This document shows, one piece after another, positions 19,322 through 44,502 of a DNA stretch of 64,000 bases; within the stretch, counting starts at the first letter, position 1, and every line of letters starts with the position of its first letter. The translations under genes and the position numbers were made by a program. The notes under the pieces are model-generated. The model did no database searches. It was not told the origin of the DNA and saw only the letters and a list, made by a program, of their open reading frames with translations. Where the stretch lies: positions 24,544-88,543 of the forward strand of contig JBEKZD010000003.1 in the NCBI GenBank assembly GCA_049510215.1, in the 5' to 3' direction. The stretch comes from Verrucomicrobiia bacterium (GTDB taxonomy: Bacteria; Verrucomicrobiota; Verrucomicrobiia; Palsa-1439).

Positions 19322-20512
19322 ATGTTGAACCAGCTTTACATTCTCTACCTCGTGTCGTTGTTGATGGACATGAGCGTGGCAGGGGTGTCGTTTGCGATCA
19401 GCCGACGCGCCGCCGAGCTCGGCGCCAGCGCGTCGGAACTCGGCTGGCTGGCGGCGGTGTGGATCGGCGTGTACGGCGCGCTGGTGCTCCTGACAGGCCA
19501 CCTGTCGGACCGGGTAGGCCGTCGCAAGCTGGCCGTCATCGGTTGTCTCATTGCGTCGAGCATGACGTTGATTTGTTCGTTCACGACGCGCGTGCCGTTG
19601 CTGCTCTGGTTCAGCGCGGGAATCGGCGCCGGCATCGCGTGTTTCTGGCCGTCGATCATCGCGTGGCTCGGCGAAGGATTGAGCGGCGCGCAATTGGCGA
19701 AACGGTTGACCACTTTCGGCGTGGCATGGAACGCCGGTCTCCTCTTGGGTTTCGGCTGCACCGGAGTCATTTTCAAGCACTGGCCGCAGCCGGCATTCTA
19801 TGCGCCGGCAGGCGTGATCTTGCTCATTGCCGCGCTGTTGTTCATGCATGTTGAAGGTAGGGCTCGACCGCCGGGCGAGCTGAACGACTCGGACGGCCCG
19901 GCGGTCCGTCCCTACCAAAAACCTCACGTGCCGGCCGGTCGTGGATTCCGCAAAACGGCCTGGCTGGCGCTGTTCGCGACGAACTTCGCGCTCAACGGCA
20001 CAGCCGCGCTGTTCCCGCAACTGGCGACGCATCTCGGCATCAGCGCTGACGTGCACGGTGCATTGTTGGCAGCGGGACGCGGTGCCGCCCTGGCGGCATT
20101 TGTCGCACTGCAACTGCTGACGTTCTGGCGAACGCGGCTGTGGCCATTGTGGGTGGCGCAGGCGTGTTGCGCAACCAGCATCGTGTGGATCGGCCTGGCT
20201 AACGCGACGTGGATGTTCGCAACGGCGTGGGTGATCGGCGGCGTGGTATCAGGTTACGCGTATCAGGCGAGCATCTACTTCACGCTCGAAGAGATGAGTG
20301 AAAAAGGCAAAGGCAGCGGCTTCCACGAAGCGATGCTCGGCAGCGGGATGTTTTTCGGGCCGATGTTGGCGGGCTGGGTCGGCAACAATCACGGGTTGCG
20401 CACCCCGTACTTGTTCTGCGCCGCGGCGCTGCTGGCGCTCATCGTGGCTCAGATGATTCTTGTCTTTTGGAGACGCACCGCAGCCGCGAACGCCATCCTC
20501 CGCCACGACTGA
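19322..20512 (+). CDS. MFS transporter
   Basis: Twelve-TM-like hydrophobic pattern with the MFS signature GHLSDRVGRRK. Start trimmed to MLNQLYILY (19322). Contains an in-frame MITE-like insertion at 19856-19916. Confidence 0.7.
   Translation: MLNQLYILYLVSLLMDMSVAGVSFAISRRAAELGASASELGWLAAVWIGVYGALVLLTGHLSDRVGRRKLAVIGCLIASSMTLICSFTTRVPLLLWFSAGIGAGIACFWPSIIAWLGEGLSGAQLAKRLTTFGVAWNAGLLLGFGCTGVIFKHWPQPAFYAPAGVILLIAALLFMHVEGRARPPGELNDSDGPAVRPYQKPHVPAGRGFRKTAWLALFATNFALNGTAALFPQLATHLGISADVHGALLAAGRGAALAAFVALQLLTFWRTRLWPLWVAQACCATSIVWIGLANATWMFATAWVIGGVVSGYAYQASIYFTLEEMSEKGKGSGFHEAMLGSGMFFGPMLAGWVGNNHGLRTPYLFCAAALLALIVAQMILVFWRRTAAANAILRHD
19856..19916. mobile_element. MITE-like palindromic element, family 2 (GGTAGGG...CGGACGGCCCGGCGGTCCGTCCCTACC), inside the MFS CDS
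   Basis: Terminal inverted repeats GGTAGGG/CCCTACC plus internal hairpin GGACGG...CCGTCC. Near-identical copies at 41051-41123 and 31312-31378. Here it encodes a loop (...[12 protein letters not shown]...). Confidence 0.65.
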
Positions 20513-23416: not shown

Positions 23417-26410
23417 ATGCCCGAAATCCGAAAGAAATATCCGTTCGACAAGATCGAGCCGAAGTGGCAACGCTATTGGGCCGAGCACAAGACGTTTGCT
23501 GCCGTTGACCAGTCACCGATCCCCAGTCACCAATCACCGAAGTTGTACGTCCTAGACATGTTCCCGTACCCCAGCGGCGCAGGGCTGCACGTCGGCCATC
23601 CCGAAGGCTACACCGCCACCGACATTTACTGCCGATTCAAACGGATGCGCGGATTCAACGTGCTGCATCCGATGGGCTGGGACGCGTTCGGTCTTCCCGC
23701 CGAACAATACGCCATCGACACCGGCACTCAGCCCGCCGTCACGACGCGCAAGAACATCGACACCTTTCGCCGCCAAATCCAGATGCTCGGCTTTTCCTAC
23801 GATTGGGACCGCGAAGTGGACACGACCGACCCGAATTACTTCAAGTGGACGCAGTGGATTTTCCTCCAGCTCTACAACAGCTACTTTGACTTCGAACTCG
23901 AGAGGGCGACGCCGATTTCGCTCCTCGAAGATGCTCTCTCCGAGACTCCGCAGCGCGAGACCGAGTGGAAGGACAATGCTTTCCTCTCTGGAACCCGCGC
24001 GGGCTTCTTCAAACGGCCACGCCACGAGCACGACAACCTGCGCTGTTCATTTATCCGCAACATGCGCCTCGCCCGCGAGGCCGAAGTACCCGTCTGGTGG
24101 TGTGAAGGCTGCAAAGCCGTTCTCGCCAACGAGGAAGTCAACGCCGACGGCACGTGCGACCGCAAAGGTCACAAGGAAGTTTATCGCCGTCCCCTTCGAC
24201 AATGGATTCTCAAGATCACCGCCTACGCGGAGCGATTGCTGAAAGATTTGGAGTTGGTCAACTGGCCAGAATCCATCAAGGAACAGCAGCGCAACTGGAT
24301 TGGGCGGAGTGAGGGGGCGGAAGTAGACTTCCAAATTGCCGGTGGCACAGGCGTCCCTGCCTGTGACAAGATTCGTGTGTTCACCACACGACCTGACACA
24401 CTCTTCGGCGCGACGTACATGGTGCTCGCACCGGAGCACCCGCTCGTCGAGAAAGTCACGACATCCGAACAGCGCGCTACCGTGATCGCCTACCGCGAGG
24501 AAGCTCAACGCAAGAGTGAGCTGGAACGCACGCAGTTGGAGAAGGAAAAGACCGGCGTGTTTACCGGCGGCTACGCCATCAATCCGGTGAACGACGAGAA
24601 GATTCCGATTTGGGTCGCCGATTACGTGATGATGAGCTACGGCACAGGCGCCATCATGGCCGTGCCAGCGCACGACACGCGTGACTTCGAGTTCGCGAAG
24701 AAATTTGGTTTGGAGATTCTTCTGGTAGTAAAACCCCTTTTTGAGAATGCAGAGCATCTCAAGCGTAACGCCGAGTTTTGGGCACGTTTCGACGAGGATT
24801 ATCAAAGCGAGGAAGAGTTCGCGAATGCTATCAGAAAGGAGGAGAGATCCTGGGGTAAGGGTGAAACACTGCTGAGCCAGATTGTTGACAAGAATACTGG
24901 TGAGGTTCTCTCTCCTTTCGTCGGGGACGGCACGTGCTTCAACTCTCCAAACAAGAAAGATGCCGAAGCGTGGAGGCGTGAAGGCCGAAGCTTTTGTGAA
25001 ATCACCGGCCTGCCCACTCCCGAAGCCAAGAAGAAGATCACTGCTTGGCTCGAAGAGCGCGGCCTCGGCAAGGCAACCGTGCAATACAAGCTGCGCGACT
25101 GGTTGTTCTCGCGGCAACGGTACTGGGGCGAGCCGATTCCGATTGTCCATTGCGAGGGATGCGGAACGGTTGCCGTGCCTGAGAGCGACTTGCCGCTCAC
25201 GTTACCGGAGATGAAGGATTACACGCCGACGGGCAATGCCGAGCCGCCGTTGGCCAAGGCAACGGATTGGGTCAACACGAAATGTCCGCAGTGTGGCGGC
25301 CCAGCCCGGCGCGAGACGAACACGATGCCGCAGTGGGCGGGATCGTGCTGGTATTACCTCCGTTACATTGACCCGAAAAACAAGGCAGCGTTCGTCGGGA
25401 AAGAGAAGGAGAAGTACTGGATGCCGGTCGATCTCTACGTCGGTGGCGCGGAGCACGCGGTGTTGCATCTGCTTTACTCGCGATTCTGGCACAAGGTGCT
25501 GTTCGATCTCGGCCACGTCTCGACGCCGGAGCCGTTCGTGCGGTTGGTCAACCAGGGCATGATTCTCGGCGAAGACAACCAGAAGATGTCGAAGTCGCGC
25601 GGCAACGTGATCAATCCCGACGACGTGGTGCGCGAGTGCGGCGCGGATGCGTTCCGCATGTACGAGATGTTCATGGGGCCGCTCGAAGCGACGAAACCGT
25701 GGAGCACGGAAGGGTTGCAGGGCGTGTATCGGTTCCTCGGCCGCGTCTGGCGACTGTTCTGCGATGAGGACGGCAATCTCATCGTGGACGACGAACCGAA
25801 TCCCCCTCACCTTGATCCTCTCCCCCAAACGACGGGGGAGAGGAAACAGCAAGGAATCCCCTCGCCCTTGCCGTCCAAGGGAGAGGTTTACCCGCCGCAG
25901 GCGGCGCCAAAGGCGACCAAGGGTCAGGGTGAGGGTTCCGTTGATCCCAAGCTGCTCAAAGCGCTCCATCAGACGATCAAGAAAGTCGGCGAAGACACCG
26001 ACACACTCAACTTCAACACCGCGATCTCGCAGATGATGATCTTCGTCAACGAAGTCACGGCGCAGACGGCCCGTCCACGCAAACTTCTCGAACCGTTCGT
26101 GCTGGTGCTCGCGCCGTACGCGCCGCATCTGGTCGAGGAACTCTGGGAAAAGTTAGGGCACAAGCAATCGCTCGCCCAAGAACCGTGGCCGAAGTACGAC
26201 GCCGCGTTGCTGGTGGAGAGCACCGTCACGGTCATTCTACAGGTCAACGGCAAGTTGCGCGACCGCATCGAAGTGCCGGCCAACGCATCGCAGTCGGAAC
26301 TCGAAACGCTGGCGCTCGCCAACGACCGCGTGAAGGAATTCCTCGCCGGCAAGCAAATCAAGAAAGTCATCGTCGTCCCCGGCAAACTGGTCAACATCGC
26401 GGCGGGTTGA
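23417..26410 (+). CDS. leuS: leucyl-tRNA synthetase
   Basis: [12 protein letters not shown] (HIGH) and KMSKSRGN (KMSKS) are present, with the editing domain and anticodon-binding domain. Carries a 47-aa in-frame insertion encoded by a MITE-like element at 25805-25934. Confidence 0.95.
25805..25934. mobile_element. MITE-like palindromic element, family 1 (TIR CCTCACCTTGATCC ... GGTCAGGGTGAGG), inserted in frame in leuS
   Basis: Internal hairpins TCTCCCCCAAACGACGGGGGAGA and CCCTCGCCCTTGCCGTCCAAGGGAGAGG. Related copies at 42725-42808 (intergenic) and 38098-38148 (short variant). Translated as [47 protein letters not shown]. Confidence 0.7.
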
Positions 26411-37385: not shown

Positions 37386-38084
37386 TTATACGCGCTTCTG
37401 TCCGTAATACGCGCCCGGCCCGTGCTTGCGCAGAAAATGTTTGTCGAGCAGGACCTTCTGCATGGGTCTGACCGATGGTTTGACCCGCAATGTCTCGCTC
37501 GCCAGACGCGCCAGGTGTTCGAGCACGGCCGCGTTCTCGACCGCCTTCTCAACCGTTTCGCCCCATGCAAACGGTGCATGGCTGGCCACCAACACGCCGG
37601 GGAAACGAAGCGGGTCAACCTTCCTGAACTTCTCAACAATCACGTGCCCGGTGTTCGCTTCATACTCGGATTTGATTTCCCGGGCCGTGAGCAACCGCGT
37701 GCACGGTACCGGCCCGTGGAAATAATCCGCGTGCGTCGTTCCTAGCGGCGGAATCTCGCGCCGCGCCTGCGCCCACGCGGTGGCGTACAGGCTGTGCGTG
37801 TGCACGACGCCGCCGATACTCTTGAAGGCACGGTAAAGAATGCGGTGCGTCGGCGTATCGGAACTGGGCTTCAGATCGCCCTCGACGACCCTGCCTGTTT
37901 CCAGCGACACGACCACCATGTGCCCGGGTTTCATCCTGTCGTAAGGCACACCCGAGGGCTTGATCACCATGTTGCCGCTGGCGCGGTCAACGCCGCTGAC
38001 GTTGCCCCAGGTCTGGATGACCAGTCCCTCGGCAACCAGTTTCAGGTTCGCCTCACAAACTCGCTTCTTCAGTTCTTCAAGCAT
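37386..38084 (-). CDS. araD: L-ribulose-5-phosphate 4-epimerase (class II aldolase/adducin fold)
   Basis: [34 protein letters not shown]...[13 protein letters not shown] matches the AraD family. Start trimmed to MLEEL. Confidence 0.8.
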
Positions 38085-38097
38085 CGCAAAACCTTTC

Positions 38098-38148
38098 CCC
38101 TTCACCTTGATCCTCTCCCTTGTTCAAAGGAGTGGGTCAGGGTGATGG
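38098..38148. mobile_element. short variant of MITE-like family 1 (CCTTCACCTTGATCC...GGTCAGGGTGATGG)
   Basis: Intergenic between araD and araB. Confidence 0.5.
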
Positions 38149-38154
38149 TTCGTG

Positions 38155-42724: not shown

Positions 42725-42808
42725 CCTCACCTTGATCCTCTCCTCCGACGAACGGAGGAGAGGAAATCCCCTCTCCCTTGCCGTTCAAGGGAGAGGGTCA
42801 GGGTGAGG
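42725..42808. mobile_element. MITE-like element, family 1 copy (intergenic)
   Basis: cctcaccttgatcctctcctccgacgaacggaggagaggaaatcccctctcccttgccgttcaagggagagggtcagggtgagg. Confidence 0.7.
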
Positions 42809-42846
42809 GTTCCGGGCCGCCGCTGCACGTGATGCGGGAGGCAGTT

Positions 42847-44502
42847 ATGGCACGCTTGTTCCTCGGACTCGATTCCAGCACGCAGAGCCTGTCGGCCATC
42901 GTGATCGATCACGATACGCGGAAGGCCGTGTACGAAGCGTCGCTGAACTTCGACCAATCGCTCTCGCACTACGGCACGCAGAACGGCACGTTGCGCAACA
43001 AAGACCCGCTGGTCGTGCACAGTCCGCCGTTGATGTGGGCGGAAGCGCTCGACCTGATGTTCGTGCAAATGAAGAATGACGGCCTGCCGCTCGGCGACAT
43101 CCTGGCCATAAGCGGCAGCGGTCAGCAACATGGGTCGGTCTATCTCAACGACCGTGTTGCCGATGCACTAGCCAATCTCGACCCGGCCAAGAGCCTCGTG
43201 GAGAATCTCAGCGGCACATTTGCACGGGCAACGTCGCCGATCTGGATGGATTCCTCAACCAGTGCCGAGTGCGCCGAGATCCGCCAGAAACTTGGCGGCA
43301 TCAAGGCCACGGCGCAACTGACAGGCTCAGACACTTTCGAGCGATTCACCGGGCCGCAGATCCGCAAGTTCTACAAGACCGAGCCGGAGAACTACGAGCG
43401 AACCGCGAGCATCGCGCTCGTGAGTTCGTTCATGGCGTCCATCATCGCCGGGAAGATCGCACCGATCGATCACGGCGACGGCGCGGGCATGAACCTGATG
43501 GACATCAGGAAGAAGACGTGGCATCCCGACGCGCTCAAAGCCACCGCGCCGCGCTTGAAACAGAAGCTTCCGCCGCTCGCCGAGTCATCGAGAATCATCG
43601 GTTCGGTCAGTCCGTATTTCGTGAAGAAGTACGGACTCAATCCTGATGCACAGGCGCTGGTCTGGTCGGGTGACAACCCGTGCAGCCTCATCGGCCTCGG
43701 CCTTATCAAGGAAGGCATGGTCGCCATCAGCCTCGGCACCAGCGACACCTATTTCGGTTTCATGAAACGCTGCCCCGAAGGCTTTCGGGGCGAAGGTCAC
43801 GTGTTCGGATCTCCTACTGGTGACTACATGACGCTCATCTGTTTCAAGAACGGCTCGCTCGCCCGCGAAAAGATCCGCGACCAGTACGGCCTCGACTGGA
43901 ACGGTTTCAACCGCGCGCTGGCCAGCACGCCACCCGGCAACAACGGCGGCATTCTCCTGCCGTGGTTCGAAGCCGAGATCGTCCCGCGTGTCAACAAGCC
44001 CGGCATCCACCGTTTCGACCTCGACGAACGCGACGCCGCCGTGAACTGCCGGGCGGTCGTCGAAGCGCAGATGATGTCGATGCGCCTCCACTCGCAATGG
44101 ATGAAAGTCGCACCGAAGCGCATCTACGCCACCGGCGGCGCCTCGATGAACACCGCGATCCTTCAAGTGATGGCCGACGTGATGAACTGTCCCGTCCTGC
44201 GCATCGAGGTCGCTAAGAGTGCCGCGCTTGGCGCCGCGTTGCGCGGCGCCCACGGGTACTTGGTAGCGCAAGCCTCCGCGCTTGCGAAAAGGGGAAAGAT
44301 GGTAGGAAGGGATCACCGCCGAGGCGGGACAGGCGCCCGCGCCACCAATCTCTGGCAGGAAATCGTCGCCGGCTTCACCAACCCGATCACCAACAGCGAA
44401 ATCAAACCCAACCGGAACTCCGCCGAGGTTTACGACAAGCTAATCGGGAAGTATGCCTCGTGCGAACGGCGGGTTCTCCAAGCCTGTCAGAACGAAGTGT
44501 GA
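42847..44502 (+). CDS. FGGY-family sugar kinase (xylulokinase-like)
   Basis: MARLFLGLDSSTQSLSAIVID... N-terminus and FGGY C-terminal domain (ATGGASMN). Carries a C-terminal tail beyond typical XylB length. The internal 18-mer CCCCGAAGGCTTTCGGGG is shared with 29821-29838. Confidence 0.7.
   Translation: MARLFLGLDSSTQSLSAIVIDHDTRKAVYEASLNFDQSLSHYGTQNGTLRNKDPLVVHSPPLMWAEALDLMFVQMKNDGLPLGDILAISGSGQQHGSVYLNDRVADALANLDPAKSLVENLSGTFARATSPIWMDSSTSAECAEIRQKLGGIKATAQLTGSDTFERFTGPQIRKFYKTEPENYERTASIALVSSFMASIIAGKIAPIDHGDGAGMNLMDIRKKTWHPDALKATAPRLKQKLPPLAESSRIIGSVSPYFVKKYGLNPDAQALVWSGDNPCSLIGLGLIKEGMVAISLGTSDTYFGFMKRCPEGFRGEGHVFGSPTGDYMTLICFKNGSLAREKIRDQYGLDWNGFNRALASTPPGNNGGILLPWFEAEIVPRVNKPGIHRFDLDERDAAVNCRAVVEAQMMSMRLHSQWMKVAPKRIYATGGASMNTAILQVMADVMNCPVLRIEVAKSAALGAALRGAHGYLVAQASALAKRGKMVGRDHRRGGTGARATNLWQEIVAGFTNPITNSEIKPNRNSAEVYDKLIGKYASCERRVLQACQNEV

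Follow-up and report, generated by a model that had tools for sequence, protein, structure and literature searches.

In a 64,000-nucleotide stretch of the genome of a Verrucomicrobiia bacterium (contig JBEKZD010000003.1; hereafter the window), the leucyl-tRNA synthetase gene leuS carries a 138-nt palindromic element within its uninterrupted reading frame. We consider it likely that this element is built from the repeat unit called BoxC, PIT or TMECO in Escherichia coli, that it was inserted into leuS once and is translated as a loop, and that it was subsequently lost, trimmed or nested in individual lineages. In the mechanism that we propose, two units in inverted orientation together with a 35-nt module would have entered leuS between a proline and an aspartate codon (CCC|GAC), at a site within the variable linker between the catalytic and anticodon-binding domains, and would have done so without target-site duplication. 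In the basic unit, a C-rich block is separated by a loop from the first of two G-rich blocks, which themselves flank a loop of 3 nt; such a unit could fold as a hairpin or adopt an intrastrand triplex or G-quadruplex structure. Because its length is a multiple of three and no stop lies in frame, the element would be translated, presumably giving a 46-residue hydrophilic and probably disordered loop tolerated by the enzyme (LeuRS). Because leuS is essential, only in-frame variants would have survived, and the later fates of the element, depending on lineage, would have been clean loss, trimming or the arrival of a further, similar element nested within it.

Anatomy of an in-frame insertion in leuS

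The gene and the parts of the element, in coordinates of the window, are as follows.

23417..26410, plus strand: leuS (leucyl-tRNA synthetase), 997 aa, intact frame enclosing the element (open reading frame and translation)
25805..25942, plus strand: whole element, 138 nt = 46 codons, P797-V842, limits from the empty alleles P0004 and P0029
25805..25844, minus strand: left BoxC/TM-like unit with C-block TCCTCTCCCCC, 7-nt loop, G-block GGGGGAGAGGA, loop TCA and third block AGGTGAGGG
25845..25858, plus strand: 14-nt spacer AACAGCAAGGAATC, encodes KQQG, common to the leuS alleles P0009 and P0122
25859..25886, plus strand: right-unit hairpin CCCTCGCCCTTG-CCGTC-CAAGGGAGAGG, C-block plus first G-block
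25887..25921, plus strand: module 3, 35 nt, two short hairpins, parts the first from the second G-block of the right unit
25922..25938, plus strand: right arm GGTCAGGGTGAGGGTTC, supplies the right unit's second G-block, identical in the window and contigs L126 and L249

The editing, catalytic and anticodon-binding Pfam domains of LeuS were all recognized with no break in frame, and the names of the homologues identify the host as a member of Verrucomicrobiia. The leuS DNA is identical between two independent metagenome assemblies of different sources (L250 and L251), and the 997-aa protein, NCBI MGA2220665.1, was seen on 44 contigs, the longest of 981 kb, and is indexed in 65 collection blocks; the identical DNA and the 65 blocks document that the insertion is fixed within the source population. 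Comparison with the 120 best LeuS homologues, all of Verrucomicrobia-type by source names, places the element within a linker segment that is 87 aa long in the window protein, exactly 40 aa in 106 of the 120, and 34-35 aa in ten more. The final helix of the catalytic body lies on one side of the element and the opening helix of the anticodon-binding domain on the other. Because 116 of the 120 thus have 34-40 aa at this site, the segment is an insertion and not native sequence. At the DNA level, the empty alleles read GCA CCC|GAC GCG AAG in P0004 and AAA CCC|GAC CCC AGG in P0029, and the filled allele in the window reads ..AAT CCC|CCT CAC CTT ... GGT TCC GTT|GAT CCC AAG. The element starts at a codon boundary (P797), and the net gain of 47 aa comprises the 46-codon insert and one further codon on the left; with this additional left-hand codon in the window allele, the limits of the element are uncertain by a few bases. 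LeuS of the window is long in other respects as well (997 aa vs typically 806-875 aa): two more large insertions relative to relatives of ~810 aa, at aa ~153-217 and ~441-527, are patchily common to homologues, and their DNA is free of palindromes.

The termini of the element, CCTCACCTTGATCC (25805-25818) and GGTCAGGGTGAGG (25922-34), are inverted repeats that are complementary at 12 of 14 positions or, in an alternative alignment, over 16 nt at 88%. Inner hairpin 1 has a perfect 11-bp stem (25816-26/25834-44), and inner hairpin 2 has an 11-bp stem with a single mismatch (25860-70/25876-86). In folding computations that covered Watson-Crick pairing, the element reached -75.2 kcal/mol as RNA (z = -5.1) and -37.3 kcal/mol as DNA (z = -4.5). 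A promoter/terminator scan of its coding strand gave no promoter-like or terminator-like site. An earlier note, made from the letters of the window, had described an uninterrupted leuS frame with an element starting at 25805, terminal inverted repeats, and a 47-aa expansion rich in Pro, Gly and Lys close upstream of the anticodon-binding domain. These points hold for the 25805-25942 element in its 997-aa frame, where the expansion of ~47 aa is lineage-specific, is rich in Gln as well and lies between the catalytic and anticodon-binding domains. Its "two to three perfect hairpins" come down to the one perfect 11-bp stem, the second carrying the mismatch and two others being short.

The predicted insert peptide contains nine Pro, six Gly, five Gln and four Lys residues. 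Solved LeuRS structures align on either side of the insertion and not across it. In an AF2 model, residues 794-840 are predicted as coil with pLDDT <50, between confidently predicted helices at 767-781 and 844-862.

Relationship to the BoxC/PIT/TMECO family

The repeat is present in two further places in the window.

42725..42812, plus strand: 88-nt intergenic copy that has both arms as well as two hairpins, DNA fold -37.3, z = -7.5
38100..38151, plus strand: minimal intergenic copy of 52 nt, one degenerate hairpin flanked by the two arms

The window contains three occurrences of the 17-mer at the right end of the element, compared with an expectation of 0.10, and none of 100 shuffles reached this count. 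The three copies, of 138, 88 and 52 nt, have in common their two arms, with at most one mismatch, and one or two hairpins, and both copies outside leuS are intergenic when realistic start codons are applied. In alignments, module 3 is missing from both of them, and the 42725 copy has 4 nt (AATC) at the position of the spacer and is without the 10 bases 25847-25856 of the leuS copy. The repeat family is therefore modular, with constant arms and inner modules that vary in number. A sugar-kinase-like gene has its likely ATG at 42847, with GGGAGG before it, 35 nt beyond the end of the 88-nt copy. The genes on either side of the 52-nt copy both run on the minus strand, and the flank AAGGGGAAAGG of this copy lies immediately upstream of a likely ATG at 38084, at the position expected of a ribosome-binding site.

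The building block of the element can be written CCCTC(A/T)CC-YTGAY-CCTCTCCC-loop-GGGAGAGG. We searched one genome per species for the 17-mer comprising arm and stem; the CCTCTCCC-loop-GGGAGAGG hairpin follows in 112 of the 122 matches listed, and we rejected chance matching as the source of these hits on that count. Among the matches listed are Alpha-, Beta- and Gammaproteobacteria (including Enterobacter and Pseudomonas), Myxococcota, Chloroflexota, Planctomycetota, Acidobacteriota, Verrucomicrobiota, Atribacterota, Bifidobacteriaceae and others. The near-identical BoxC/TMECO unit CCCTCACCCTGACCCTCTCCC-loop-GGGAGAGGG, a sequence of ~35 nt, was seen far outside Proteobacteria, the matches listed including Dehalococcoidia (Chloroflexota), Nitrospirota and Oscillospiraceae as well. 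An inverted pair of the Enterobacter type matches 5,426 of 5,426 complete E. coli genomes at a median of 28 places per genome, and Holder et al. 2015 list the E. coli K-12 copy downstream of fabI as TMECO no. 9 in their Table 1 (PMC4666352). On the strength of this continuity between the two families, the repeat in leuS appears to be the same unit as the E. coli BoxC/PIT/TMECO element.

Holder et al. give the TMECO consensus as CCCTCNCCC-N3-6-GGGNGAGGG-N3-GGGNGAGGG and equate TMECO with the BoxC repeat (Bergler 1992 and Bachellier, as cited there) and with Maher's PIT, the potential intrastrand triplex elements (Hoyne/Maher 2000) (PMC4666352). Triplex formation was shown in vitro; MG1655 has 23 copies, with inverted pairs at five sites, and the census covered Proteobacteria (PMC4666352). 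In E. coli the motif is described as "always located intergenically", without a link to mobile elements and associated with local deletion and mutation; it had neither promoter nor terminator activity and gave no triplex footprint in vivo, and how it spreads was unknown (PMC4666352). Kaplan et al. 2016 describe the G-rich half GGGAGAGGGTTAGGGTGAGGG (HPG1/HPG2) as a switch between G-quadruplex, hairpin and duplex with an intergenic-only distribution (PMC5100583). Measured against the TMECO consensus, the right unit of the 42725 copy (42769-42809) is an exact fit to all three 9-nt blocks, with a 3-nt second loop and a first loop of 11 nt. The right unit in leuS matches blocks 1 and 3 exactly and block 2 at 8 of 9 positions, with a second loop of 38 nt, and the left unit differs from the E. 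coli consensus by one G>A change per block (PMC4666352). Inspection of the left unit and of 42769-42809 predicts that their blocks permit G*G:C, A*A:T and T*A:T triads. As a whole, the leuS element thus reads as two BoxC/PIT/TM-type units in inverted orientation together with a further module.

The extra module has a wider distribution of its own. A phmmer search with the 50-aa peptide against 1.84 billion representatives gave six matches and was the source of the recurrence of module 3, which is also found in unrelated copies of the family (P0127, P0129, P0131, P0132 and contig L149). P0127, P0129, P0131 and P0132 are predicted "proteins" of 50-60 aa that are translated copies of the repeat and, hence, spurious calls of open reading frames. 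Some of their flanks are AT-rich (Lys/Ile/Asn/Tyr), so the repeat family occurs in low-GC genomes too.

History of the insertion and competing explanations

An insertion at exactly the same site is present in five other LeuS sequences, among them P0009, P0122, P0130 and P0003. A 99-aa query covering the insertion and its flanks returned 11 candidates from a 5.8-billion-protein set, including the fragment P0122. P0009 was compared at the peptide level, and P0122, P0130 and P0003 through their DNA (contigs L126, L249 and L001, respectively). The P0009 insert peptide equals that of the window bar one residue and is without module 3. The fragment P0122 has an identical hairpin 2 and right arm and a similar spacer, and the fragment P0130 has hairpin 2, a module 3 whose stem differs in sequence with its self-complementarity kept, and the right arm. 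Ahead of these parts, P0130 has another palindromic pair, which belongs to a sister type and is nested in a further copy of module 3; in P0003 a degenerate left arm is followed by the same nested sister element, half of module 3 and a shortened right arm.

L001 3085-3230 and L249 1-125: sister palindromic pair ACCCACCCCTGACCCCTCC...GGAGGGGCCGGGGGTGGGTTC, CCCCTCC/GGAGGGG blocks, nested in the leuS insertion

Every variant, including the nested and trimmed ones, stays in frame. The sister pair in L249 interrupts a module-3 hairpin, which suggests that elements target one another's hairpins. We considered the P0003 stretch GGCRCCAnnnGCGACCAAG as the orthologue of the window's module 3 and rejected this because L249 holds both stretches; from its sequence, it appears to be part of a module-3 copy broken by the nested element.

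P0009, P0122 and P0130 share with the window the loop of hairpin 1, the KQQ spacer, and the loop and variants of hairpin 2, so that alleles from four or more diverged leuS lineages have these parts in common. Loops and spacers are hypervariable among the ~115 other metagenome copies sampled, and the window's own intergenic copy differs from the leuS copies in both. Because the leuS copies share such idiosyncratic parts, there was probably one original insertion into leuS, in an ancestor common to several lineages of Verrucomicrobiia. A neighbour-joining tree built from ungapped columns gave bootstrap support of 93% to {window, P0004, P0003} and of 94% to {P0009, P0029}, and the smallest clade with all full-length filled alleles also includes the empty P0004, P0029, P0030 and P0032. 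Because the same insertion in other lineages is interleaved with empty relatives, we conclude that it is of old origin and that loss or remodelling followed, with either clean loss at least three times or transfer between lineages. Clean loss agrees with the deletion-prone behaviour of the E. coli motif (PMC4666352).

These comparisons also bear on how the element arrived. Filled and empty alleles show CCC|GAC with zero duplicated bases and, therefore, no target-site duplication at leuS; the flanks of the three window copies have no common direct repeat; and no transposase was called within +/-10 kb of leuS. Because there is no duplication, the ends are hairpins, one element is nested in another's hairpin and the target is CCC-rich, we suggest insertion by a single-strand/hairpin or a microhomology/repair route rather than by cut-and-paste transposition. 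The earlier note was thus right that the three copies with their shared arms form an interspersed palindromic repeat family and that the gene is unbroken. Its "near-identical" intergenic copies are indeed intergenic and share the arms, but are shorter relatives (88 and 52 vs 138 nt). The reading as a "MITE-like mobile element" is unsupported: the terminal inverted repeats would suit a MITE, but the unit is that of BoxC/PIT/TMECO, and there is no duplication and, within +/-10 kb, no transposase. The idea that it "landed" in this genome gives way to an insertion with the same loops and spacer in P0009, P0122 and P0130 and rearranged in P0003.

Several points weigh against this account. The leuS copy departs from the strict TMECO consensus, its second loop having 38 and not 3 nt and its left unit one mismatch per block. 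With a mean pLDDT of 63.8 and a pTM of 0.43, the AF2 model is of low quality as a whole and therefore gives weak support to the predicted disordered surface loop, and we infer translation and retention of the segment in mature LeuRS. For the history, parsimony in the seven-member clade permits two to three gains about as easily as three or more losses, and every loss must restore the canonical length of 40 aa. The L126 sequence upstream of the element may belong to a chimeric contig. To our knowledge, BoxC-type repeats have no known insertion mechanism.

A competing reading arises from conservation at the nucleotide level. A 46-nt core, consisting of 29 nt across hairpin 2 (25857-25885, all but the last hairpin base) and the 17-nt right arm, has 0 differences among the window, L126 and L249; in the next 430 nt of leuS there are 66-84 differences (80-85% identity), and 28-33% of third positions differ. 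Fisher p-values for core vs flank are 1e-3 to 1e-4 with all flanking sites and ~1e-6 with third positions, in a comparison of two effectively independent lineages. The left half is unprotected and has decayed or been replaced in L126, L249 and L001. Right-unit stems and arms thus change far more slowly than neighbouring synonymous sites, an observation that we regard as a lead rather than a result. Because protein selection alone on a disordered linker would not freeze synonymous sites, the constraint would act on the nucleic acid, candidates being selection for the fold and a bias of repair or conversion. It can be argued from this that the element is a domesticated cis-acting one, whose DNA or RNA structure (hairpin, triplex or G-quadruplex) is useful, for instance in pausing translation between the LeuRS domains, in decay of the leuS mRNA or at the DNA level. 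The very stable fold, the invariance of the core at synonymous positions and the hairpin kept by module 3 of L249 on a different stem sequence would all fit. We nevertheless regard domestication as unlikely, given that close relatives lack the element, that its left half decayed or was replaced in P0003 and P0130, that the conservation rests on just those two lineages and that the E. coli motifs are without promoter or terminator activity and triplex footprint in vivo (PMC4666352). In a bolder form, BoxC/PIT palindromes with triplex and G-quadruplex potential would be more than intergenic "junk": they would enter essential genes of Verrucomicrobiia at CCC-rich sites, reversibly and free of duplication, would be translated as linkers and would have their stems held by selection on the nucleic-acid fold. 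We offer this combination as a speculation in which we place little confidence; if true, it would give the motif a cis-acting function and, for the first time, provide copies that are orthologous and datable, on which the manner and cause of conservation of a pan-bacterial motif could be measured.

Alternatively, the CCC|GAC CCC site could be a hotspot that was hit independently in the lineages of the window, P0003, P0009 and P0122/P0130, the empty alleles being ancestral. The canonical 40-aa length and consensus of all the empty alleles would be more readily explained had they always been empty, the target CCCGACCCC is similar to an arm of the element, queG copies sit at one site in two lineages (see below), and the nested second element indicates that the family is or was active at the leuS locus. 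Separate insertions would, however, not be expected to agree in the hairpin-1 loop, the KQQ spacer, and the loop and mismatch of hairpin 2, in which the filled alleles resemble one another and differ from the window's intergenic copy and the ~115 others sampled, nor in orientation, frame and the flanking "SV". We therefore find repeated insertion improbable and retain a single insertion with later losses as the preferred reading.

Removal of the segment before the mature protein is formed, as an intron, an intein or by ribosomal bypass, would accord with the strong local RNA structure. We rejected it as very improbable because 138 nt is far below the size of group I/II introns or inteins, because intein blocks and matching families are lacking (Rfam gave no family at the gathering threshold in the window, intron or otherwise, and noise alone at E up to 10), and because the frame is open and strictly conserved in all variants, which is necessary only if it is translated. 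A repeat-induced misjoin in a metagenome-assembled genome is hardly credible, for although repeats cause chimeras and L126 joins the 3' part of leuS to unrelated DNA at the element, the two independent assemblies agree, the protein recurs on its 44 contigs of up to 981 kb, and leuS is in frame on both sides of the element. The L126 contig itself, of 994 nt, fuses the 3' part of leuS within the element to unrelated DNA with a divergent gene start (1-330), either through repeat-induced chimeric assembly or through real rearrangement at the repeat.

In-gene copies elsewhere and comparison with known systems

A metagenome scan with the 19-mer CCTCACCTTGATCCTCTCC found at least 119 loci, two of those listed being chance matches with no hairpin. 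Among the loci listed, four, all on metagenome contigs, are in-frame copies inside real genes; in uvrA, queG and the speE-like gene alike, Pfam domains flank the insert.

L192 ~700-830: uvrA copy, UvrA domains on both sides
L223 9404-9489: queG copy, frame as in leuS, 102 residues cover a 77-position Pfam domain
L200 ~395-500: queG copy in a second lineage, same site as in L223, different inner content
L149 275-392: copy in a membrane spermidine-synthase-like (speE-like) gene

Each arm contains a TGA stop in one of the three frames per strand. A fair share of random insertions with a length that is a multiple of three would thus be expected to stay open, and survivors would be unsurprising where copies are numerous.

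Other palindromes in coding sequence came to light as well. In the window, an unrelated palindrome GGTAGGGCTCGACCGCCGGGC...GCCCGGCGGTCCGTCCCTACC (19856-19916) is part of the reading frame of an MFS transporter (ORF 19133/19322..20512, plus strand), encodes 21 residues of the central loop and folds as DNA to -23.4 kcal/mol (z = -4.7); it is common to close homologues, and in distant ones the loop is 8-9 aa shorter. The leuS gene of P0029 contains an in-frame palindrome of a different, GGTAGGGCG...CGCCCTACC type (L127 3123-3236, 114 nt, RNA fold -58 kcal/mol), which is also found in proteins P0009 and P0022, at LeuS aa ~375-412 (GGRAHSPSAPNAFNNSGGVGDTALPT). With this second palindrome, leuS in the clade has been struck at two sites by two repeat families.

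Among known systems, BoxC/PIT/TMECO is the closest in sequence. The leuS element has its three-block architecture in nearly the same sequence (CCCTCNCCC, loop, GGGNGAGGG, N3, GGGNGAGGG) and, like five sites in E. coli K-12, units in inverted "palindromic" pairs, and shares the multiple copies, the lack of an associated transposase (within +/-10 kb of leuS), and the local instability by deletion or mutation of the motif. It differs in its Verrucomicrobiota host, in a longer first loop (11 nt, with an extended stem), in a left unit reading CCTTGATCC and not CCCTGACCC, in the 35-nt module between the G-blocks of the leuS copy and in location, the E. coli copies being exclusively intergenic whereas those described here lie in leuS and elsewhere in uvrA, queG and a speE-like gene. 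A BoxC-type element inside genes, contrary to the "always intergenic" description from E. coli, is new, and so is the observation of orthologous in-gene copies that show loss, nesting and unusually slow change. We know of no function or mechanism of spreading that has been assigned to the BoxC/PIT/triplex motif since the 1990s. Copies in an essential gene allow orthology to be established, so that the motif is seen to persist through speciation, to be lost or remodelled in frame and in part to change slowly; in-gene copies thereby make its conservation and instability measurable. In practical terms, such elements inflate protein lengths, create spurious small open reading frames and can cause chimeric metagenome contigs.

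The REP, BIME and REPIN elements, mobilised by RAYT transposases (PMC3116915, PMC3733652), are comparable in their short GC-rich hairpin units, inverted doublets, variable linkers and lack of target-site duplication. REPs carry a conserved 5' GTAG or CGTC tag on a palindrome of 20-40 nt (PMC3733652); the units described here have neither tag and begin with CCCTCACC, they possess a third block (the triplex architecture) that REPs do not have, and no RAYT was seen within the available 64-kb sequence. Bordetella BRE, the pneumococcal BOX, RUP and SPRITE, and intragenic ERIC are repeats able to sit in open reading frames (PMC3184786, PMC10969869). They resemble the leuS element as small non-autonomous repeats with open frames fused with or inside host genes and differ in sequence and architecture, and many of them disrupt a gene or extend its ends instead of expanding an internal loop.

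In-frame palindromic repeats in housekeeping genes are best documented in Rickettsia. As summarized in passages of two later sources, the RPEs of Ogata et al. 2000 are palindromic repeats of ~100-150 bp found in frame in many housekeeping genes (PMC10969869, PMC3184786). Like the leuS element, they occur in frame in unrelated housekeeping genes, add a peptide without inactivating the gene and are also present between genes. The host phylum is a different one, the leuS element is GC-rich, RPEs are not built from triplex/G-quadruplex units and, judged by their published descriptions, no sequence relationship is apparent between the BoxC-like unit and RPEs. By this analogy, the leuS element is to be seen as an analogue and not a member of the RPEs, which would be its closest counterpart in action. 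A 2024 review, in the passage that concerns this point, calls an RPE-like process merely "conceivable" in other prokaryotes (PMC10969869). The RPE-like phenomenon in Verrucomicrobiota is therefore new, and the leuS case extends in-frame palindromes to another phylum, with a different and far more widespread repeat.

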